Sequence record: PP886229
Length of the DNA: 64,000 nt
Direction: 5' to 3' (one strand)
Source of the DNA: Escherichia phage vB_EcoM_E9
The stretch's first letter is position 1; each line of letters starts with the position of its first letter. Below the pieces are notes generated by a model. The model was not told the DNA's origin, made no database searches, and was given only the letters and a program-made list of their open reading frames with translations. The position numbers and the translations under genes were made by a program. Below are positions 4,722 through 24,580 of this stretch, one piece after another.

Positions 4722-5007
4722 CGTTAAACTCTCTGACGAAGAAATAGTTGACTTTATTATTACCTACCATAAGGTCAAAGCAGGTATTCTCAAAAGGTTT
4801 GTTGTAGGCATCGTATGAAGTGTACGTATCAGCTACTTGTTTAGTATTGAGCTTTTTACTTGATGGATTTAAGAGGCCACCATACAGTTTCTTGATAGCC
4901 TCTTCTACAACAGACCAGATGATTTCGTCAGTAATTTCTTCGTACAGGTCAAGTTCACGCTCTAGTGAGAAGTCACAAATAGGGAAAATAACCTGTACTT
5001 TACTCAT
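4714..5007 (-). CDS. hypothetical protein
   Basis: 97 aa ORF. Confidence 0.45.
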   Translation of the reverse strand: MSKVQVIFPICDFSLERELDLYEEITDEIIWSVVEEAIKKLYGGLLNPSSKKLNTKQVADTYTSYDAYNKPFENTCFDLMVGNNKVNYFFVREFNDE

Positions 5008-5408
5008 TAACGAATAACCTGTGTGACTTGAATTGCTTCAGTTACGGACAAATCACCTACTTTCTCTTCTTTGATAAAAGTGAAGGTGAGTTCAACAGGT
5101 TCTTCCTCTTCTTCTTCTTGCTCAACTGGAATACCGTTAAGCTCATCAAAGATTGATTGGGTAGTCCAGTCTTCTCCACCATCTGGATAGTGGATGGCAT
5201 AAAGAGGAAACTCTAAATTATACCAAGCAAAAACAGGACAACCGTCTGCATCATCTCGGCATCTGTGGAGGTACGTATTTGTACCTTCAAAATGCAAATG
5301 AAGATTGCCATTCTTCTCAAATAGAAGAGCATCTCGCAGGTCTAGTTCCTTATTTTCGCTGTAACGACTGACATCAACTTTAACGTGGATATGACTGTTA
5401 TTATTCAT
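5007..5408 (-). CDS. hypothetical protein with poly-Glu stretch
   Basis: 133 aa ORF, EQEEEEEEP run. Confidence 0.5.
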   Translation of the reverse strand: MNNNSHIHVKVDVSRYSENKELDLRDALLFEKNGNLHLHFEGTNTYLHRCRDDADGCPVFAWYNLEFPLYAIHYPDGGEDWTTQSIFDELNGIPVEQEEEEEEPVELTFTFIKEEKVGDLSVTEAIQVTQVIR

Positions 5409-5799
5409 AAAAACCTCTCTCTGCTTGTTCGATTTTTGCTCTTAAAGTTTCGCAATGCTGTAAATGGTAGTTAGCTTCTTGTTCATGTGTTGCTAACTGC
5501 CTTTCAAGAACAGTTTTATAGTAACCTGCAAGTTGCTCTTTTGTCAATGGGTGCTCTGAAATAATATCAAGTCCACTTTCACCAAGAGGATTGAATTGTC
5601 CATGCTCATTGACATTGTAAGTCTCAAACTTGAACATACCATTGTTCACAGACTCAATAGGTGACAGTTCAACAAGCTCTACAGTAAACCGTGTATACAC
5701 CTTGTCGCCTCTTGAAACTACATTGTTTCCAATGATGCGTACAAGTGAACCGTTACGAGTGTACTTAAAAGTCCCAAAGTCACTAGCCCAAAGTTTCAT
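5401..5799 (-). CDS. hypothetical protein
   Basis: 132 aa ORF. Confidence 0.5.
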   Translation of the reverse strand: MKLWASDFGTFKYTRNGSLVRIIGNNVVSRGDKVYTRFTVELVELSPIESVNNGMFKFETYNVNEHGQFNPLGESGLDIISEHPLTKEQLAGYYKTVLERQLATHEQEANYHLQHCETLRAKIEQAERGFYE

Positions 5800-5824
5800 A
5801 GTTTTCTCCTTAGAAAATAAAAAA

Positions 5825-5840
5825 GGCTCCCGAAGGAGCC
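5825..5840 (-). terminator. Rho-independent terminator hairpin (GGCTCC-CGAA-GGAGCC) with U-run on the minus strand
   Basis: Perfect 6-bp GC-rich stem; A-run 5813-5824 on plus strand. Confidence 0.6.
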
Positions 5841-5850
5841 TATGAAGATA

Positions 5851-6315
5851 TTACTTTGGATATACACTGTCAAGATAAATGTCAGCTTCCATTCTACGTC
5901 TGTTTTTCAAGCCGTTTGAAGTGACCTTCTCACCTTTGACTGTAATCTTGTTCCACCACTGCATAGCTTCTGCACAACCTACCTTATTACCAGCATTGTG
6001 GCGCTTGATAAATGTAGAATCCTGCATAGCTGTGATACCGATGTTGTATGTTTCACTTACAAGTGCATCGAACTCATTCTGAGAAGTAGGAACCTTGATA
6101 GCTTTGTTCACTGCTGCAACAAACTTTTCAACATCTGCGAGAAGATACTGTTCAGCTTGTTCAGCAGTAATTTTCATACCCATCTTAACAGGTTTTCCGT
6201 CAATACGGATTGTGCCATACCCAATTGTTGGGATTCCGGCAGAGTCTTTGTAAGCCTCTAACTTCAGACCTTCAAAGAACTTAATAGCTTCTAAACCTTT
6301 TCTTGAGAGTTGCAT
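5851..6315 (-). CDS. phage lysozyme (GH24, T4-lysozyme-like endolysin)
   Basis: 154 aa; N-terminal E-x8-D-x5-T catalytic-triad spacing in FEGLKLEAYKDSAGIPTIGYGT. Confidence 0.8.
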   Translation of the reverse strand: MQLSRKGLEAIKFFEGLKLEAYKDSAGIPTIGYGTIRIDGKPVKMGMKITAEQAEQYLLADVEKFVAAVNKAIKVPTSQNEFDALVSETYNIGITAMQDSTFIKRHNAGNKVGCAEAMQWWNKITVKGEKVTSNGLKNRRRMEADIYLDSVYPK

Positions 6316-7448
6316 TATGCCTCCCCTGTTGGGTTAACTGTAACTGTTGCCGCATTAGATGTTACAGAGCCACCTGCACCAGTTACTACACAAGTGTAAG
6401 AACCTGCATCAGCAGCAGTTGCACCTTCTTTGGTGTAAGTTGCAGCAGTTGCGTCTGGGATGACTTCCTCACCTTTCTTCCACTGGTAACCTGTTGCACC
6501 AGTTGCCACAACATTCAGCGTTAAGGTCTCACCTTCAGTGATTTCTTGATTTGCTGGCTGTTGAGTGATTACAGGAAGAGCATTCACAGTAACTGTCGCT
6601 GCATTAGATGTGACTGAACCACCTGCACCAGTTACAACACAAGTGTAAGAACCTGCATCTGCTGGAAGCGCACCAGTCTTGCTATAGGTAGCATTTGTAG
6701 CTGAAGGGATGTTAGAGCCATCTTTCTTCCACTGGTAACCTGTTGCACCTATTGCAGTCACTTCCAAGTTGATGTTTCCACCCTCATTAATGGTCTGACT
6801 AGAAGGTTGCTTGGTAATCACTGGTAGTGCATTAACAGTAACTGTTGCCGCATCTGAAGTAACACTTGTTCCAGCCTCTCCAGACACAACACAAGTGTAT
6901 GAACCAGCATCAGAAGGTGCTACGGATTGTTTTGTGTAAGTTGCAGAGGTAGCACTGGAGATGTCCTCACCACCCTTCTTCCACTGATATCCAGTGGCGT
7001 TAGTTGCAATAACACTTAGGGTAAGTGTTCCACCCTCATTGACCGTTTGGTTTGTTGGTTGTTGAGTAATTGCTGGTGGCTTAATAGCATCCTTCAGCTT
7101 AGCATTCAACATTGAGAAAGGTTTAACTCTTGCCAGCCATTCACAGTAAATTGTGTCAACATCTTTACCGTTGATGATTGCATACTGTAAATCCATGAAG
7201 AAATCAGCAGTCCTCATCTGTGCACCAACACTGTAAAGGAGTTCATCACTAAAAGGGACTTTGTAGTCTGGTTTGTAGTCAAACTTCTCAACCTCTGCGA
7301 TATCAGCTTCAGGCCAATATGAACTATAGGTAAGTGGTAAAATAGCCTCTTGATATGTTCTAAAATCATATCTCTTACCAGCCTTTACATTTGCAATGAA
7401 GCCCTTTACAAATTCTTTGAAGTCTGGATAAGTCTTTGCTTTAATCAT
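6315..7448 (-). CDS. Ig-like domain protein (three tandem Ig-like repeats) with N-terminal domain paralogous to the next gene
   Basis: 377 aa; three ~80 aa repeats each ending ATGYQWKKG...DAGSYTCVV...ATVTV; DNA shows three ~250 bp tandem repeats. Confidence 0.7.
   Translation of the reverse strand: MIKAKTYPDFKEFVKGFIANVKAGKRYDFRTYQEAILPLTYSSYWPEADIAEVEKFDYKPDYKVPFSDELLYSVGAQMRTADFFMDLQYAIINGKDVDTIYCEWLARVKPFSMLNAKLKDAIKPPAITQQPTNQTVNEGGTLTLSVIATNATGYQWKKGGEDISSATSATYTKQSVAPSDAGSYTCVVSGEAGTSVTSDAATVTVNALPVITKQPSSQTINEGGNINLEVTAIGATGYQWKKDGSNIPSATNATYSKTGALPADAGSYTCVVTGAGGSVTSNAATVTVNALPVITQQPANQEITEGETLTLNVVATGATGYQWKKGEEVIPDATAATYTKEGATAADAGSYTCVVTGAGGSVTSNAATVTVNPTGEA
6330..7060. repeat. 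Three tandem ~250 bp coding repeats encoding the Ig-like domains
   Basis: Near-identical stretches such as CCACTGGTAACCTGTTGCACC recur at ~6480, ~6725 and ~6975. Confidence 0.7.
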
Positions 7449-9526: not shown

Positions 9527-10942
9527 ATGAGCGAATTATTTAAACATGCGCACCTTCATGTAGGTCGAACTGAAAATGGTGCTGTAAACCATACTTCATC
9601 AATGTCTGCTCTTGTGGACTTTTACAAAGCTGCTGGTTCCAGCCGTAGTAATGTAGAAATCTTACCAGACTTGTTCTACAAAGCTTTGCGTGAGGATGTT
9701 GATGTTGCAGTTCGTATTTTACTGCATATGCGAGATGTACGAGAAGGTATGGGTGAGCGTAAAGCTTTCCGAACTGTTTTACTTCAAGCGATTGAAGATA
9801 AAGTTTTAGAGCCTACACAGGTTCTTCGCATTATGGATAAGATTGCAGAACTTGGTCGTTTTGATGACTTCAAAATCTTCGTAGGTACTCGTTTTGAGAC
9901 AGATGCCTTCAAACATTTAGAAGCAGCATTACTAGACCCTGCAACATCAGGTTTAGCGGCTAAGTGGTTACCACGAGTAAAACCACGCCACAAACAGTTT
10001 GTAAAACGTTTCTGTAAGTTTGCAAACTTAAGTGAGAAGGAGTATCGCACACTGTTATCTGCACTGTCTGATACGGTTGAGCAAAAAATCTCTGCTAATG
10101 AGTTTGGTAAGATTGACTACAGCAAGATTCCTTCACTCGCTGCTGCACGTTACCAAAAGCTCTTTAACCGTAAAGATGGGGAACGTTACAAAGCTTACAT
10201 TGAGTCCTTATCAAAAGGTGAGGCTAAGATTAACGCTGGTGCTGTTTACCCATACGATGTGATTAAATCTATCAAGTATGGTAATGCAGATGTTGCTAAT
10301 GAGCAGTGGAAAGCACTACCAAACTGGATGGCAGAAGGTGAGAACATCTTGTGTATGACTGATGTTTCAAGCTCAATGTCTTGGGTGAATATTGGTTCAA
10401 TCACTGCCCTTGATATTGGTGTATCACTTGCTTTGTATGTAGCAGAACGCAACACTGGTTGCTTTAAGAATGAGTTAATGGTTTACTCAACAAACCCTCA
10501 CTTCATCGAACTGAGTGGTGATTTACGAAACCGTCATCGTCAGGTAATGCGTCATGTTGAATATGGTTCAACTAACTTACAAGCAGCTTTTGACCGTATT
10601 CTTGAGGTAGGTAAGCGAAACAACTTGACTCAGAAAGATATGCCAAGTAAGCTTATTATCTTCTCCGATATGGAGTTCAATCAGGTTGATGGAGCTAACG
10701 GTCGTACAAACTTTGAAGCAATTCAGAGTAAGTACAAAAAAGCTGGATACGAAATGCCACAACTAGTATTCTGGTACTTAGCAAACCGTAATGGTACTTG
10801 CGAAGTATCTGTTAAGGATAATGGTGTAGCGATGGTATCAGGGTTCTCTCCAGCCACTTTAAAAGCTCTGCTTGGTGGTGAGAAGTTTGACCCAATCAGC
10901 GTAATGCTCAAAGCAGTAATGATTGACCGTTACATCTGGTAA
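9527..10942 (+). CDS. von Willebrand factor A (vWA) domain protein with large N-terminal domain (TROVE/DUF2828-like suspected)
   Basis: 471 aa; MIDAS-like DxSxS motif (CMTDVSSSMSW) in the C-terminal half. Confidence 0.55.
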   Translation: MSELFKHAHLHVGRTENGAVNHTSSMSALVDFYKAAGSSRSNVEILPDLFYKALREDVDVAVRILLHMRDVREGMGERKAFRTVLLQAIEDKVLEPTQVLRIMDKIAELGRFDDFKIFVGTRFETDAFKHLEAALLDPATSGLAAKWLPRVKPRHKQFVKRFCKFANLSEKEYRTLLSALSDTVEQKISANEFGKIDYSKIPSLAAARYQKLFNRKDGERYKAYIESLSKGEAKINAGAVYPYDVIKSIKYGNADVANEQWKALPNWMAEGENILCMTDVSSSMSWVNIGSITALDIGVSLALYVAERNTGCFKNELMVYSTNPHFIELSGDLRNRHRQVMRHVEYGSTNLQAAFDRILEVGKRNNLTQKDMPSKLIIFSDMEFNQVDGANGRTNFEAIQSKYKKAGYEMPQLVFWYLANRNGTCEVSVKDNGVAMVSGFSPATLKALLGGEKFDPISVMLKAVMIDRYIW

Positions 10943-10961: not shown

Positions 10962-10990
10962 TTGACAATGTGTTTGATACCCTTTAATAT
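10962..10990 (+). promoter_or_regulatory. Sigma70-like promoter TTGACA-N17-TAATAT upstream of the tRNA array
   Basis: Exact -35 hexamer, 17-nt spacer, -10 TAATAT; -35 sits inside inverted repeat GGGTAT/ATACCC. Confidence 0.5.
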
Positions 10991-11108
10991 GTTCTACATA
11001 GAAACGAAATGAGAGCTTTTCTAAGATACTGAAAAATATTTTAAAAAAGTTCTTGACAACCACTAAAAAATAATGTTAAAGTGGTTACATAGAGTTTGAA
11101 AAGTTTAT

Positions 11109-11270: not shown

Positions 11271-11277
11271 GTTTTGA

Positions 11278-11350
11278 CAGAAGACCAATTGCAGCAAACT
11301 TAATCTTATTCATCTGACACGAAATCGGACAAAGAAGAGATTTGGTCTGG
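11278..11350 (+). ncRNA. Stem-bounded tRNA-sized element, copy a (CAGAAG-AGACCAA ... TTGGTCT-GG)
   Basis: 7-bp terminal stem 11282-11288/11342-11348; conserved CAGAAG leader and CAGCAA box; no T-loop consensus. Confidence 0.4.
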
Positions 11351-11361
11351 TCATTAAGAAT

Positions 11362-11438
11362 TGCGGGTATAGAGAAAGGGCGTCTCACATGTCTCATTAG
11401 CATGGTATCGGCAGGTTCGACTCCTGCACCCGCCTCCA
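11362..11438 (+). tRNA. tRNA-Met-like (anticodon CAT), mismatched 1:72 pair
   Basis: Anticodon stem CATGT/GCATG, T-arm GCAGG-TTCGACT-CCTGC, CCA. Confidence 0.55.
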
Positions 11439-11444
11439 AATTTA

Positions 11445-11508
11445 CAGAAGACCGTTTACAGCAATATTTATTAAATTTTTAGCGGAAAAATTGAAAGATA
11501 CGGTCTGG
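11445..11508 (+). ncRNA. Stem-bounded element, copy b (CAGAAG-AGACCGT ... ACGGTCT-GG)
   Basis: 7-bp terminal stem with compensatory changes relative to copies a and c. Confidence 0.4.
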
Positions 11509-11521
11509 TAATACTAAACAT

Positions 11522-11598
11522 GGTTAGGAAGCACATAAGGTATGTGCGGTCGCCTGTTAAGCGAATGGCACAGGGTTCGAATCCCTGACTAACCGCCA
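11522..11598 (+). tRNA. tRNA-Asn (anticodon GTT)
   Basis: D-arm GCAC..GTGC, T-arm CAGGG-TTCGAAT-CCCTG, CCA. Confidence 0.65.
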
Positions 11599-11607
11599 AA
11601 TTTAAAT

Positions 11608-11695
11608 GTGTCGTTATCCCGTAGATGGTAGCGGTGGGGACTGTAAATCCCTTGTCATTGAGACTCGGTAGGTTCGACTCCTACACGGCACACCA
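11608..11695 (+). tRNA. tRNA-Tyr (anticodon GTA), long variable arm
   Basis: Acceptor GTGTCGT/ACGGCAC, anticodon stem GGGGA/TCCCT, T-arm GTAGG-TTCGACT-CCTAC, 88 nt. Confidence 0.7.
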
Positions 11696-11701
11696 AATAA
11701 A

Positions 11702-11779
11702 GGTTATGTAGTTTAATCTGGTTAAAATACTCCCCTGTCACGGGAGATGATGTGAGTTCAAGTCTCATCGTAACCGCCA
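11702..11779 (+). tRNA. tRNA-Asp (anticodon GTC)
   Basis: Acceptor GGTTATG/CGTAACC, anticodon stem CTCCC/GGGAG, CCA. Confidence 0.7.
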
Positions 11780-11866
11780 AATTATAATAAGTATTTCAAG
11801 ATGATGTTTTGAGAGGGCTATTTAGCCCCTCCCTTAAAGAGTTCTTACGAGTATTCTTTAAAGGAG

Positions 11867-11940
11867 CAGAAGACCAAATTCAGCAAGTTACTTAAAATTT
11901 CAAGCCAATTTAATTTTGAAAAATTTAAAACTTGGTCTGG
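11867..11940 (+). ncRNA. Stem-bounded element, copy c (CAGAAG-AGACCAA ... TTGGTCT-GG)
   Basis: 7-bp terminal stem 11871-11877/11932-11938. Confidence 0.4.
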
Positions 11941-11953
11941 CTCAAAAATTTTA

Positions 11954-12085
11954 CAGAAGACCGTTTACAGCAAAACTTAAACAATCTATTTCTCCGGTAA
12001 AGAAAAGGCGAAGGTTCGATTCCTTCACTCGGCAGATGTCGAGTTGGTGTAATGGTAGCACTTAAGATGATAAACAACGGTCTGG
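11954..12085 (+). ncRNA. Stem-bounded element, copy d, enclosing tRNA halves in permuted order
   Basis: 8-bp terminal stem AGACCGTT/AACGGTCT (11958-11965/12076-12083); contains a T-arm and a D-arm in reversed order. Confidence 0.4.
11989..12061 (+). tRNA. Candidate circularly permuted tRNA (anticodon GGT, Thr-like): 3' half 11989-12034 precedes 5' half 12038-12061
   Basis: 3' half has anticodon arm TTTCT-CCGGTAA-AGAAA, T-arm GAAGG-TTCGATT-CCTTC, acceptor ACTCGGC; 5' half has acceptor GTCGAGT (7 bp with one G-U) and D-arm GTGT-AATGGTA-GCAC. Confidence 0.35.
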
Positions 12086-12086
12086 T

Positions 12087-12230
12087 AATTATCTTTGTAG
12101 ATAAGTTATTAAGCTTACCTGTGAGTATGCGACCACAAAGGGTGAAAGGGCAAATTCTAGATTTAAACCCAACAAGGCACATCGCTACAGACCTTAAGCA
12201 AGTCTGGGTAGCTTATCTACAAAGATAATT
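12087..12230. repeat. 19-bp perfect inverted repeat AATTATCTTTGTAGATAAG (12087-12105 / 12212-12230) flanking ~106 bp
   Basis: Arms are exact reverse complements. Confidence 0.6.
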
Positions 12231-12234
12231 TAAT

Positions 12235-12310
12235 GGAAGTGTAGCAGAATGGTGATGCGGCAGACTTTTAATCTGACAGGCGATGGGTTCGAATCCCTCC
12301 ACTTCTACCA
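12235..12310 (+). tRNA. tRNA-Lys (anticodon TTT)
   Basis: Acceptor GGAAGTG/CACTTCT, loop CTTTTAA, T-loop TTCGAAT, CCA. Confidence 0.6.
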
Positions 12311-12483: not shown

Positions 12484-12512
12484 TTGACATTGAGATGTGA
12501 CTACTTTATAGT
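12484..12512 (+). promoter_or_regulatory. Sigma70-like promoter TTGACA-N17-TATAGT inside the tRNA array
   Basis: Exact -35 at 12484-12489 and -10 TATAGT at 12507-12512 with 17-nt spacer. Confidence 0.55.
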
Positions 12513-12805
12513 AACTGAAAATAATTCAGCATATGTATAATTCAAACACCAATACATGAGCGTTAGACGTAACACAATGTGGGGAAATTTGTTGTACATA
12601 TTCTGAATAGTTTTCGTTGCGTAGCGTCTATTTTGCAAATTTAAAATAAATGCAAACGACAATGTTTTTCTGGCAGTAGCTTGATAGGCTAAACACCAGT
12701 GAGGTCTTCCAATCCCTCATCAAAGAATTTGGCGTACTAGCCCACGGTATGATTAATAAGGTGGGCATCTTTAAGGGCTTTCTAAGAGAGTCTTTAAAGA
12801 TTAAT

Positions 12806-12882: not shown

Positions 12883-13024
12883 AATAGTTAGCAGATTGCT
12901 TAGACGACCTTATCGGGTCTCCGTGTAAGGAGGTGGTCTGTATCTCATGTTTTCCAGAACATGTAAATAATCTGAGAAGGGGCTTTACAGTGTTGCGAAA
13001 ATACGGTAAGCTTCGAATTACAGT

Positions 13025-13107
13025 ATGGGACGATGTTAAGACTCTAAGGCATGAGCAACGGCCTCCAAAACCGTTTCAAAGGGGTTCAACTCCTCCGTCC
13101 CATGCCA
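13025..13107 (+). tRNA. Atypical tRNA-like sequence, anticodon unassigned
   Basis: Acceptor ATGGGAC/GTCCCAT plus T-loop-like GGGGTTCAACTCC and CCA, but no clean D-arm or 7-nt anticodon loop. Confidence 0.3.
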
Positions 13108-13120
13108 AAGTCTTATTAGG

Positions 13121-13208: not shown

Positions 13209-13364
13209 CCTAATAAGATTTACACCGTCCATGCTTGCTCGCATTTTCGGTTTATCCCTCGTGTATTGTCGTACACTGATAAAGCACCTAGCAGGTGTCA
13301 CGGAGAAGAGATAATATCAAGCTCTCCAAAGGTTCTAGTCACCGGATTAAACAAGACTATGCAA

Positions 13365-13384
13365 AGACCTATTTAGGTCTTTTT
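13365..13384 (+). terminator. Rho-independent terminator AAGACCT-ATTT-AGGTCTT followed by TTTTT
   Basis: 7-bp stem plus T-run, inside the tRNA array. Confidence 0.6.
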
Positions 13385-13463
13385 AGAGGGCTTCTAAGGT
13401 TATTACAGCTTGTTGTGGAACCTTGTTGCTTAGGTTCTTAGAAGTTCTCTAAAAAGATTTAAT

Positions 13464-22517: not shown

Positions 22518-23627
22518 ATGTTGACTAATTCTGAAAAAAGCAGATTTTTCCTTGCTGACCTGACTGGTGAAGTCCAGTCTATCCCAAATACTTATGGGTA
22601 TATTTCCAACTTAGGTCTGTTCCGTTCAGCACCAATCACCCAAACTACTTTCCTTATGGACTTGACTGATTGGGATGTTAGCTTGCTTGATGCGGTAGAC
22701 CGCGATAGCCGTAAAGCAGAGACTAGCGCACCTGAGCGTGTTCGTCAAATCAGCTTCCCAATGATGTACTTCAAAGAAGTTGAAAGCATCACTCCTGATG
22801 AAATTCAGGGTGTACGTCAGCCAGGCACTGCAAACGAGCTTACTACTGAAGCTGTAGTACGTGCTAAGAAGCTGATGAAGATTCGTACCAAGTTTGATAT
22901 TACTCGTGAGTTCCTGTTTATGCAAGCTCTGAAGGGTAAAGTTGTCGATGCTCGTGGTACTCTGTACGCTGACCTGTACAAGCAGTTCGACGTTGAGAAG
23001 AAGACTATCCACTTCGACCTTGACAATCCTAATGCTGACATCGACGCTGCTATTGAAGAACTGCGTATGCACATGGAAGACGAAGCTAAGACTGGCACTG
23101 TAATCAACGGTGAAGAAATTCACGTAGTTGTTGACCGTGTATTCTTCAGCAAACTGGTTAAGCATCCTAAGATTCGTGACGCTTATCTTGCACAGCAGAC
23201 TCCACTGGCTTGGCAACAGATTACTGGTTCTCTGAGAACTGGTGGTACTGACGGCGTTCAGGCTCACATGAACACCTTCTACTACGGTGGTGTTAAGTTT
23301 GTCCAGTACAACGGTAAGTTCAAAGACAAGCGTGGTAAGGTTCATACTCTGGTGAGCATTGATGGTGTTACTCAGGATGGAACTGTAGGTGTAGGTCATG
23401 CTTTCCCTAACGTTTCTATGCTTGGTGAAGCAAACAACATCTTCGAAGTGGCATATGGTCCATGTCCTAAGATGGGTTATGCAAATACACTTGGTCAGGA
23501 ACTGTATGTATTCGAATACGAAAAAGACCGTGACGAAGGTATCGACTTTGAAGCTCACTCTTACATGCTGCCATACTGTACTCGTCCTCAGTTGCTGGTA
23601 GACGTTCGTTCTGACGCTAAAGGCTAA
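22518..23627 (+). CDS. major capsid protein (putative)
   Basis: 369 aa ORF after protease/scaffold; codon usage consistent with high expression; position-based. Confidence 0.65.
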   Translation: MLTNSEKSRFFLADLTGEVQSIPNTYGYISNLGLFRSAPITQTTFLMDLTDWDVSLLDAVDRDSRKAETSAPERVRQISFPMMYFKEVESITPDEIQGVRQPGTANELTTEAVVRAKKLMKIRTKFDITREFLFMQALKGKVVDARGTLYADLYKQFDVEKKTIHFDLDNPNADIDAAIEELRMHMEDEAKTGTVINGEEIHVVVDRVFFSKLVKHPKIRDAYLAQQTPLAWQQITGSLRTGGTDGVQAHMNTFYYGGVKFVQYNGKFKDKRGKVHTLVSIDGVTQDGTVGVGHAFPNVSMLGEANNIFEVAYGPCPKMGYANTLGQELYVFEYEKDRDEGIDFEAHSYMLPYCTRPQLLVDVRSDAKG

Positions 23628-23648: not shown

Positions 23649-24098
23649 ATGTGTTATACAGGCGACCCAGCCAATAACCCTCTTGATAGAGTAAGAATCC
23701 TCTGCACAGACACCAATAATGATGAAATTCTTATTGAGCAGTCTGTGCTAGAGTGGTTCTATCTAGAATCTGGAAAGGATGAAAAGAAAGCAGCCATCAA
23801 AGCTCTTAAATATTTACTCTTTCAAGTAGCCAAGATGGGAGATGAGAAGGTTGGTGGTGTTTATTTACGTAACTCTTCCAGATTCAAATCTCTGAAAGCT
23901 GTTTATGACGACCTTGTTAAAAGCTCTGTTTCAGGACTACCCTATGCAGGTGGTATTAATCAGTGCGACATTGACATGCGTCGTCAAAATCCTTGCTCTG
24001 TCAAGAAATACACAGAATATGGTGATGCTGCCAGATACGAAGGCAGAGATTACTGCAACCGTGTTAATGGCGTATTTATTATCGAGCGAGATGAATAA
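23649..24098 (+). CDS. hypothetical head-tail joining protein
   Basis: 149 aa ORF after capsid gene. Confidence 0.45.
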   Translation: MCYTGDPANNPLDRVRILCTDTNNDEILIEQSVLEWFYLESGKDEKKAAIKALKYLLFQVAKMGDEKVGGVYLRNSSRFKSLKAVYDDLVKSSVSGLPYAGGINQCDIDMRRQNPCSVKKYTEYGDAARYEGRDYCNRVNGVFIIERDE

Positions 24099-24580
24099 TG
24101 GTTAAAAGGGTTATTCACCCCGCTAGAGCAAAATTAGTCGGGGCTATGAAGAACTTGCAAACGGCTAATGCTCAAGTTGGGTATTTTCAAGAACAAGGTC
24201 AACATAGCTCTGGTTTTTCTTATCCTGCTTTAATGTATTTACAAGAAGTTATTGGGGTTCCTTCAGCTTCTGGTAAAGTATATCGTAGGTTGTTTGAAAT
24301 CACTATGATGCTAAACAGACAGACCTTGTTAGAGCAGACTAAGAAGAATCTATATAAGCAACTTAGCAGTCTCAACACAGACCCTTCAAATACCTTAGAA
24401 GCATTTGCAAAGAATGCTCAGAAGGCAATTAAAAGAGGTTTTGGTAATTCTGCTATCCTCCCCCCTAACGCACCTTCCACAGTCAAGAAAAAAGGCTTTA
24501 ATGCACCTCTTGTTGAGACAGGTGACTTAAGGGAGAACCTTGCTTATAAAATTTCTACTAAGAAGGGTATTAAAAAATGA
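24098..24580 (+). CDS. hypothetical head-tail joining protein
   Basis: 160 aa ORF, stop/start overlap. Confidence 0.45.
   Translation: MVKRVIHPARAKLVGAMKNLQTANAQVGYFQEQGQHSSGFSYPALMYLQEVIGVPSASGKVYRRLFEITMMLNRQTLLEQTKKNLYKQLSSLNTDPSNTLEAFAKNAQKAIKRGFGNSAILPPNAPSTVKKKGFNAPLVETGDLRENLAYKISTKKGIKK

Follow-up and report, generated by a model that had tools for sequence, protein, structure and literature searches.

An inverted repeat in the tRNA array of Felix O1-type phages as the probable terminal stem of a non-coding RNA gene, and its possible relation to a Ro60/Y-RNA-like system

Results

The tRNA array of Escherichia phage vB_EcoM_E9 (record PP886229) contains a long inverted repeat immediately upstream of its tRNA-Lys gene. 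We interpret this repeat, with high confidence, as the terminal stem (P1) of a gene for a + strand non-coding RNA of ~144 nt, referred to below as the element. The window analyzed here, a stretch of 64,000 nt whose coordinates are used throughout, is a Felixounavirus (Felix O1-type, Ounavirinae) genome that is 97-99% identical to many records. It carries 26 tRNA genes, all on the + strand between 11109 and 16376. Just upstream of the array, on the same strand and 1.1 kb from the element, lies ORF 9527-10942, an open reading frame (ORF) whose product has a predicted Ro60 fold, and four Y-RNA-like elements (a-d) are interleaved with the tRNA genes. The repeat itself sits in the 455-nt gap between tRNA-Asp and tRNA-Lys(UUU). 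Its 19-nt left arm, AATTATCTTTGTAGATAAG, occupies 12087-12105, and the exact reverse complement follows at 12212-12230 after a spacer of 106 nt, just as the original prediction, made from the sequence alone, had described it. That prediction had also set the repeat between the tRNA-like element d and tRNA-Lys (12235-12310), and this placement holds as well: element d ends at 12088, overlapping P1 by 2 nt, and the 3' end of the repeat lies 4 nt before the tRNA gene, which starts at 12235.

The complementarity reaches beyond the perfect arms, to 22 nt at 95% (12087-12108 with 12209-12230) and to 24 pairs when G-U pairs are counted. When as many as three mismatches were allowed, the arm sequence was found at two sites in the window, both of them the arms of this repeat, against a chance expectation of 0.05; two sites arose in none of 100 shuffled sequences. 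The RNA from 12080 to 12234 is predicted to fold with a minimum free energy (MFE) of -46.9 kcal/mol (z = -4.6), and none of 200 shuffles folded as well. In the predicted structure, P1 (22-24 bp) pairs the 5' and 3' ends of the element around a structured interior with three hairpins, P2, P3, and P4 (Table 1).

A search for the repeat elsewhere, one of the follow-ups initially proposed, found it to be single-copy in the window and kept by relatives at the same site in ~250 genomes. The sequence version present here (type A) occurs in ~190 phage records. A second version of the same length and in the same place (type B) occurs in ~60 records, which belong to Mooglevirus, Suspvirus, and some Felixounavirus; together, the two types account for ~250 Felixounavirus, Mooglevirus, and Suspvirus genomes, at a syntenic site. 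Where a Felixounavirus phage has type B, its flanks match the window at 97-98% identity, whereas identity in the interior between P1 and P4 is only ~55%. A covariance model built from the type A and type B sequences (R1) also recovers a third version (type C) in three Hafnia phage records (E = 2e-5 to 3e-4), where it lies just 5' of tRNA-Arg. Close abutment to a tRNA gene is common to every type, the neighbor being tRNA-Lys in types A and B and tRNA-Arg in type C. Among the sequences searched, homologs detected by R1 are confined to the Ounavirinae: the model found nothing in Erwinia phage phiEa21-4 (first 50 kb), T4, KVP40, Klebsiella phage FBKp34, or mycobacteriophage Crossroads. Scans of IMG/VR and metagenomes with conserved strings returned Ounavirinae contigs only, and E. 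coli genomes contained no match to the element. Some records annotate hypothetical proteins across the element, which is otherwise unannotated in the records inspected.

To gauge selection on the RNA structure, pairing was counted in 20 distinct type A and type B sequences over the 33 pairs of P1, the P3 apex, and P4; an alignment derived from the covariance model was left out of the counts because reverse-strand matches of the palindromic stem had contaminated it. The 33 pairs are 98.8% paired, compared with 29-46% when the partners are slid. Within this total, the 24 column pairs of P1 are 98.3% paired, with changes on both sides at four pairs, the four apical pairs of P3 are 100% paired, and P4 is likewise 100% paired, one of its pairs having undergone a GC/AU double change. 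Both-side changes are seen at five pairs overall (UA/CG twice, GC/CG, UG/GC, and GC/AU), and three more pairs, at the base of P3, covary within type B. Type C has a 21-bp P1 of unrelated sequence together with a 23-nt P4 core identical to that of Mooglevirus type B, and among its variants A-to-G changes create G-U pairs in P1 and P4. These comparisons provide good support, though not proof, that P1, the P3 apex, and P4 are kept by selection across three sequence versions.

Invariant G-U pairs are also found in P1, including those at alignment columns 20-132 and 23-129. Because a G-U pair would turn into an A-C mismatch in a cruciform or on the opposite strand, these pairs point to the + strand RNA as the folded molecule. 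Thus, of the two structures first envisaged for the repeat, a stem-loop in RNA is backed by the predicted fold and the conserved pairing, whereas a DNA cruciform would contain mismatches at these positions. The further suggestion that the repeat might mark another structured small RNA fits a stem and inner hairpins that are kept by compensatory and G-U changes in all three sequence versions.

The loop of P4 is complementary in each type to the J1/2 segment, in the junction that directly follows the 5' strand of P1: UAAGC/GCUUA in type A, UUAGC/GCUAA in type B, and UUUAGCAA/UUGCUAAA in type C. Shuffled sequences show such loop-junction complementarity at frequencies of 0.12, 0.05, and 0.00065, respectively. 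Its occurrence in all types suggests a loop-junction pseudoknot, which we treat as putative because in type A it would compete with the base of P2 or the top of P1. A pairing in trans between the P4 loop (UAAGCAA) and UUGCUUA at 13428-13434, in a second hairpin of the array, was set aside, as it shows no covariation in type B phages.

Comparison with Rfam 15 gave no match over 12087-12230 at E<=1 in a 6.5-kb search or at E<=10 in a 1-kb search. Because even these permissive thresholds returned nothing, known ribozyme, riboswitch, transfer-messenger RNA (tmRNA), and Y RNA models do not explain the element. Strings resembling the hairpin ribozyme and the hammerhead that were noticed by eye (AGAA, CUGUGAG, and GAAA) are not conserved in type B and were dropped. 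An intrinsic terminator, which had been raised as a possibility for the repeat, was rejected because the stem is AU-rich, the sequence that follows it (UUAAUGG) has no U tract, and a terminator scan does not list the site.

Table 1. Coordinates of the proposed RNA element, its substructures, and neighboring features in the window
Feature	Coordinates	Strand	Basis
Predicted Ro60-like protein gene, 471 aa	9527..10942	+	Pfam DUF2828 + DUF7788, predicted structure
Candidate Y-like RNA a	11275..11353	+	Shared module; R2 37 bits
Candidate Y-like RNA b	11442..11511	+	Shared module; R2 54.5 bits
Candidate Y-like RNA c	11864..11943	+	Shared module
Candidate Y-like RNA d, YrlA-type permuted tRNA mimic; last 2 nt overlap P1	11951..12088	+	Fold, covariation, R2
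Whole element, probable structured non-coding RNA with P1-P4 and proposed pseudoknot	12087..12230	+	MFE z = -4.6; R1 139.6 bits
P1, 5' strand (includes left arm 12087-12105)	12087..12110	+	MFE fold, 24 pairs
J1/2 segment GCUUA, proposed pseudoknot partner of P4 loop	12113..12117	+	Complementary to UAAGC at 12195-12199
P2 hairpin, type-specific sequence	12115..12145	+	MFE fold; equivalent hairpin in type B consensus
P3 hairpin, apex AAAUU-CUA-GAUUU within conserved GAUUCUAGAUU island	12148..12170	+	MFE fold, alignment
P4 hairpin CAGAC-CUUAAGCAA-GUCUG, most conserved part	12188..12206	+	100% paired
P1, 3' strand (includes right arm 12212-12230)	12207..12230	+	MFE fold, alignment
Linker to tRNA-Lys, 4 nt	12231..12234	+	tRNA-Lys start at 12235
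tRNA-Lys(UUU), immediately downstream	12235..12310	+	tRNA call

The protein encoded by ORF 9527-10942 matches only DUF2828 and DUF7788 in Pfam, not the TROVE domain, and its sequence has no match in the PDB. An AlphaFold (AF2) model of the protein (predicted local distance difference test, pLDDT, 87.4; predicted template modeling score, pTM, 0.88) was compared with known structures, and its top nine PDB matches are all Ro60/TROVE/Rsr proteins, aligned over the full length with template modeling (TM) scores of 0.50-0.65 and E values of 6e-9 to 2e-6. They include Thermus phage phiRo60 (9KOP), Xenopus Ro60, and Deinococcus Rsr. Judged from this model, the protein is predicted to fold as Ro60, with a TROVE-type helical-repeat ring and a C-terminal vWA domain. 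The DxSxS MIDAS (metal-ion-dependent adhesion site) motif, D279-x-S-x-S283, is invariant, and the protein is 31-34% identical to mycobacteriophage proteins that bear the annotation 'Ro-like RNA binding protein'. At an identity of at least 80% the gene is present in 250 records, with homologs in 709 phage records from many families; most related records annotate it as hypothetical, and we found no phage literature on DUF2828. A tRNA array also follows the Ro-like gene of Klebsiella phage FBKp34. Listeria phage AG20 has its Ro-like gene (5716-7023 of the examined stretch) among tRNAs, 1.2 kb from an RtcB-type 'tRNA splicing ligase', an arrangement that echoes the bacterial rsr-yrlBA-rtcBA operon.

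RNAs a-d have the module CAGAAGACC..CAGCAA..GGUCUGG in common. Each consists of an outer stem of 3-4 bp, an AGA/G internal loop, and a 7-bp helix, AGACCNN/NNGGUCU, with the string (U)U.CAGCAA just 3' of the 5' strand of the helix, and the outer stems covary between the copies (GAC/GUC, UUAC/GUAA, and GAGC/GCUC). A scan with CAGAAGACC..CAGCAA proved too unspecific to be used, giving 120+ mostly chance matches. In RNA d, the closing helix (UUAC-AGA-AGACCGU / ACGGUCU-G-GUAA) is combined with, in order, a variable hairpin, a T arm (GAAGGUUCGAUUCCUUC), an acceptor-like hairpin that covaries fully between genera, and a D arm (GUGUAAUGGUAGCAC). Such a circularly permuted tRNA-like layout defines YrlA, the bacterial tRNA-mimic Y RNA (PMC4201824), and by its predicted layout RNA d is a YrlA-type tRNA mimic.

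A model of RNA d built from Ounavirinae sequences only (R2) finds relatives beside the Ro-like genes of other phages: full-length homologs in Klebsiella phage FBKp34 (58.5 bits, E = 7e-12), Cronobacter phage LPCS28 (E = 8.5e-6), and mycobacteriophage Crossroads (E = 8e-4). An apparent match in phiEa21-4 is a tRNA-tRNA junction, a known artifact (PMC4201824); the first 50 kb of that phage contain no Ro-like gene, no element, and no Y modules. The signature helix-UACAGCAA recurs several times in the gaps beside the FBKp34, LPCS28, and Crossroads Ro-like genes, and some of the RNAs beside the FBKp34 and LPCS28 genes are closed by AU-rich terminal stems of 21-22 bp around the module. FBKp34 (6003-6116) and LPCS28 (4895-5135, both in coordinates of the examined stretches) also contain tRNA-like genes of normal order in which the helix and a UUACAGCA/UAUUCAGCA module stand at, or replace, the anticodon arm. 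From their sequences, these look like tRNA/Y-like-module chimeras beside Ro-like genes.

The most conserved hairpin of the element repeats the helix and AGCAA of RNAs a-d without the insert: P4 reads ACAGAC-CUUAAGCAA-GUCUGG in type A and ACAGACC-CUUUAGCAA-GGUCUG in type B. Five AGAC(C)..AGCAA sites cluster within 920 nt on the + strand (11282-12201), and P4 is the fifth. The long terminal stem of the element resembles those of the RNAs beside the FBKp34 and LPCS28 Ro-like genes, and the element and the Ro-like gene are found in similar numbers of records (~250 and 250, the latter at the identity threshold given above). Because P4 appears to be a cut-down copy of the Y-like module, we tentatively read the element as a Y-RNA-related scaffold or decoy RNA that is released by RNase P, an interpretation to which we give not quite an even chance.

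Discussion

Phage Ro60 proteins with Y-like RNAs are documented (PMC4201824). In Thermus phage phiLo, a complex of Ro60 and Y-like RNA with host PNPase has been shown (PMC12135203), and in a Listeria phage abundant non-coding RNAs near an Rsr-like gene have been proposed as Y RNAs (PMC12282133). We found no paper on a Ro60/Y-like RNA system in Felix O1-type phages, and nothing relevant in the literature on Felix O1 transcriptomes or small RNAs. If the element belongs to such a system, a simple pathway can be proposed. Between the promoter-like sites at 10962-11082 and the next strong one, at 12484, the + strand has no terminator-like site; the element would be co-transcribed with the tRNAs from the sites at ~10962-11082. 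RNase P cleavage at the 5' end of tRNA-Lys would make its 3' end. The P1 duplex would join the two ends and stabilize the RNA, and perhaps serve as an RNase III site that parts the element from RNA d. The folded RNA could then act in trans as a protein-binding scaffold or decoy in a phage Ro60/Y-RNA pathway for surveillance or repair of structured RNAs, with tRNAs or host exonucleases such as PNPase as plausible targets. The core formed by P4 and the pseudoknot would be the recognition site, and the fast-diverging P2-P3 region a lineage-specific module. A tRNA a few nucleotides downstream would define the 3' end much as in RNase P-released tRNA-linked RNAs (MALAT1/mascRNA and tRNA-linked viral small RNAs); unlike in those cases, the downstream partner here is a real, functional tRNA-Lys of the array, and its processing is a prediction.

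The element was compared with YrlA and YrlB of Salmonella and Mycobacterium, mycobacteriophage YrlA-like RNAs, and phiLo Yrl1 and Yrl2 (PMC4201824; PMC12135203). Like these Y RNAs, it lies on the same strand beside a Ro60-fold gene, its ends form a long terminal stem around a structured interior, and it is accompanied locally by several such RNAs, including the tRNA mimic at 11951-12088; its apparent copy of the helix and AGCAA module is of a kind that occurs in RNAs beside Ro-like genes in four phage lineages. Unlike them, it has neither a GNCGAA/CGAA-type motif nor the local CAGAAG, its module is placed within an internal hairpin, the loop of which may take part in a pseudoknot, and it has no tRNA-like domain. 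It is, moreover, embedded in a tRNA operon and persists in Hafnia phages that lack a Ro-like gene, and the local protein belongs to the DUF2828/DUF7788 branch rather than to Pfam TROVE.

Several of these differences, together with other observations, weigh against a place in the Ro60/Y-RNA pathway. Ro-binding motifs, on the 5' strand of the stem, have been defined as GGUCCGA in animal Y RNAs, GNCGAAN0-1G in bacterial ones, and CGAA in phiLo (PMC4201824; PMC12135203); neither these nor CAGAAG occur in P1 or the rest of 12087-12230. CAGAAG is common to RNAs a-d, where it sits at the place of GNCGAA in bacterial Y RNAs; P4 reads ACAGACC at this point, without AAG. The element also has AAGCAA or UAGCAA instead of CAGCAA, with no C before AGCAA. 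Because CAGAAG is missing, its partner may be a recognizer of the helix and AGCAA module and not the Ro-like protein, and because a Ro-binding motif is absent we file the element as Y-RNA-related and not as a Y RNA. R2 gives no match to the element, whose 144 nt contain none of the variable, T, acceptor-like, and D stem-loops (no tRNA or R2 match over 12087-12230), and R1 has no match next to Ro-like genes in other groups of phages. The pseudoknot may occupy the P4 loop, which would then not be free for a protein. Hafnia phage Zyzzx has a type C element, with no Ro-like gene genome-wide (tblastn, E<=1) and no Y-like modules in its array. Type A and type B phages have Ro-like proteins of 97.7-98.7% identity, so P2-P3 does not co-vary with the protein. 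Finally, few independent lineages stand behind the covariation, which is why we take it as good support and not as proof.

Because CAGAAG is missing and the element persists in Ro-less Hafnia phages, a Ro-independent role is a serious rival, albeit one that we consider somewhat unlikely. The element would then be a stable RNA with its own partner, an old passenger of the Ounavirinae tRNA operon, and its likeness to the Y-like module would reflect shared ancestry or chance. In the Hafnia phages, an identical P4, the pseudoknot, and a long P1 are retained without either a Ro-like gene or Y-like RNAs, and in all types the element adjoins a tRNA. Its position recalls the T4 species 1/2 RNAs (rnaC and rnaD), which are small stable RNAs (119-139 nt) encoded within a tRNA cluster, adjoining a tRNA and on the tRNA strand, and to which the T4 record assigns no function; these, however, share no sequence or structure homology with the element, R1 finds no match in the T4 tRNA locus, the folds differ, and rnaC is itself tRNA-like, which the element is not. 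One form of this explanation has P4 mimic an anticodon stem-loop and titrate a host anticodon nuclease or modification enzyme. By eye, P4 does have the CAGA/UCUG stem of the tRNA-Lys anticodon arm, with a loop that starts with CUU and ends with AA, and the phage group encodes a polynucleotide kinase, which is typical of phages facing tRNA cleavage; but the likeness is short, and P4 changes (CAGAC to CAAACC) where tRNA-Lys does not. A Ro-independent role would also have to accommodate the five copies of the helix and AGCAA in 920 nt of one strand, the terminal stem shared with RNAs beside other phages' Ro-like genes, and the co-occurrence of the element with the Ro-like gene in ~250 genomes. 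A bolder version, which we regard as quite improbable, is that the element founds a new class of pseudoknotted phage RNA that works without Ro60, with P4 as an anticodon-arm decoy for an anticodon nuclease or tRNA-modifying enzyme and the Ro60-like protein and Y-like RNAs as a second, later-acquired layer of tRNA protection.

It is also unlikely that the structure acts purely in cis, with P1 as an RNase III site like the stems flanking rRNAs and an interior that has no function. Such a stem would part RNA d from tRNA-Lys and prevent misfolding of these neighbors. P1 is a near-perfect duplex of 22-24 bp, close to the minimum for RNase III, and lies exactly between two functional RNAs, with linkers of 0 and 4 nt; it has the duplex length of an RNase III stem, ~20 bp or more bracketing an RNA within a longer transcript. 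The array offers parallels in a second long hairpin (13373-13462, z = -5.5), which is conserved and abuts tRNA-Leu in the same manner, and in a 13-bp stem that brackets tRNA-Ser. Known RNase III stems (those of the 16S/23S rRNA flanks, T7, and lambda) similarly bracket structured RNA in a polycistronic transcript with a duplex of at least 20 bp, but the RNA enclosed here has a conserved core of its own and P1 is more perfect than the classical phage sites. The strongest conservation, moreover, lies not in P1 but in the inner P4 and its pseudoknot partner, which are identical or compensated while the sequence of the type C P1 differs wholly; P3 covaries too, and a processing stem alone needs no conserved interior of 100 nt. 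A processing role for P1, as one part of the RNA's function, is nevertheless plausible from its length and position.

A signal acting at the DNA level (a cruciform or protein-binding palindrome for replication, packaging, or recombination) and a small protein gene are both highly improbable. The perfect 19-bp palindrome arm and a conserved central TCTAGA palindrome would suit the former, but the G-U pairs, both invariant and newly arising, would be A-C mismatches in a cruciform or on the other strand. The latter would find its gene in an ATG-started ORF of 58 aa (12052-12228) that spans the element, where some records annotate hypothetical proteins. This ORF is present only in the window and is cut to 4-35 aa in 19 of 19 other sequences checked, and its start lies inside the D arm of RNA d. 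It exists because position 12148 (C in GGGCAAAUUC) carries a T-to-C change relative to nearly all type A relatives, which removes a TAA stop; the same change leaves a C-A mismatch where the base of P3 would otherwise have a U-A pair. As the ORF is not conserved, the coding reading was rejected.

A miniature inverted-repeat mobile element inserted in the array, as the original prediction had offered among its alternatives, is scarcely credible: terminal inverted repeats do flank a core of ~100 bp, and two sequence versions with sharply bounded divergence do occur at one site, but the repeat is single-copy in the window and unmatched in E. coli genomes, searches of phages, IMG/VR, and metagenomes found only the one syntenic Ounavirinae site (in ~250 genomes) and no empty site, and changes that preserve G-U pairs point to selection at the RNA level.

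The inner architecture of the element, the putative pseudoknot, and the context provided by the Ro60-like gene and the Y-RNA-like set all go beyond what was first predicted for the repeat. Naming the element as an RNA gene would correct the annotation of ~250 genomes, in which 'hypothetical protein' calls at this site would be spurious. The sharply bounded replacement of the interior between types A and B, beside a Ro-like protein that is nearly constant, suggests that the interior is a specificity module undergoing diversification, as expected where host and phage are in conflict. The element lies outside all curated RNA families; of greater value is the surrounding Ro60-like/Y-like/tRNA operon, found here in a classical phage of enterobacteria. 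The Felix O1-type phages are classical phages of Salmonella and E. coli and are easy to grow and to engineer. If the reading of the locus as a Ro60/Y-RNA-like system is correct, these phages possess a compact Ro60-like protein together with no fewer than four Y-like RNAs, of which one mimics a tRNA, and an extra structured RNA, all interleaved with tRNAs in one operon, and would offer a tractable system for the role of Ro60/Y RNA particles in bacteria and phages, with a physical link to tRNA supply.

Other features of the tRNA array

The second long hairpin, at 13373-13462 (+), has 26-nt arms that are 85% complementary and stops just short of tRNA-Leu(UAG). Type B relatives conserve this hairpin, whose sequence includes UUACAGC as well as a conserved UUGUUGCUU with complementarity to the AGCAA motif. 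Upstream of it, tRNA-Ser(UGA) is enclosed almost exactly by the arms of a 13-nt inverted repeat (13108-13120 / 13209-13221, 92% complementary), which resembles a processing stem of extended length.

A strong promoter-like site, TTGACA-17-TATAGT, at 12484-12512 precedes a gap at 12517-12805 (+) in which Rfam gives weak matches to tmRNA (E = 0.0047, 12616-12805) and permuted tmRNA (E = 0.086, 12517-12684). The gap contains a tag-like frame at 12652-12684 (GCA AAC GAC AAU GUU UUU CUG GCA GUA GCU UGA, or ANDNVFLAVA*), and by eye a similar stretch is present in a gap of the phiEa21-4 array (23873-24289 in coordinates of the examined stretch). ARAGORN made no tmRNA call in 12517-12805. From these features, the gap may hold a phage tmRNA-like gene.

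A tRNA-like sequence at 13027-13105 (+) has no annotation; it shows a T arm (GGGGUUCAACUCC), a loop containing CCA (CUCCAAA), and the 3' sequence ...CCAUGCCA. It is missed by ARAGORN and scores just 23 bits in Rfam, against tRNA-Sec; by its sequence it may be an odd tRNA-Trp or a pseudogene. A Shine-Dalgarno-like UAAGGAGGUGGUCUGUAUCUC occurs in the non-coding array gap at 12917-12940 (+) and is conserved in phiEa21-4 (24367-24495), where another gap (22974-23200) contains a hairpin loop, UUUCACCUCCUUG, that resembles the 3' end of 16S rRNA.

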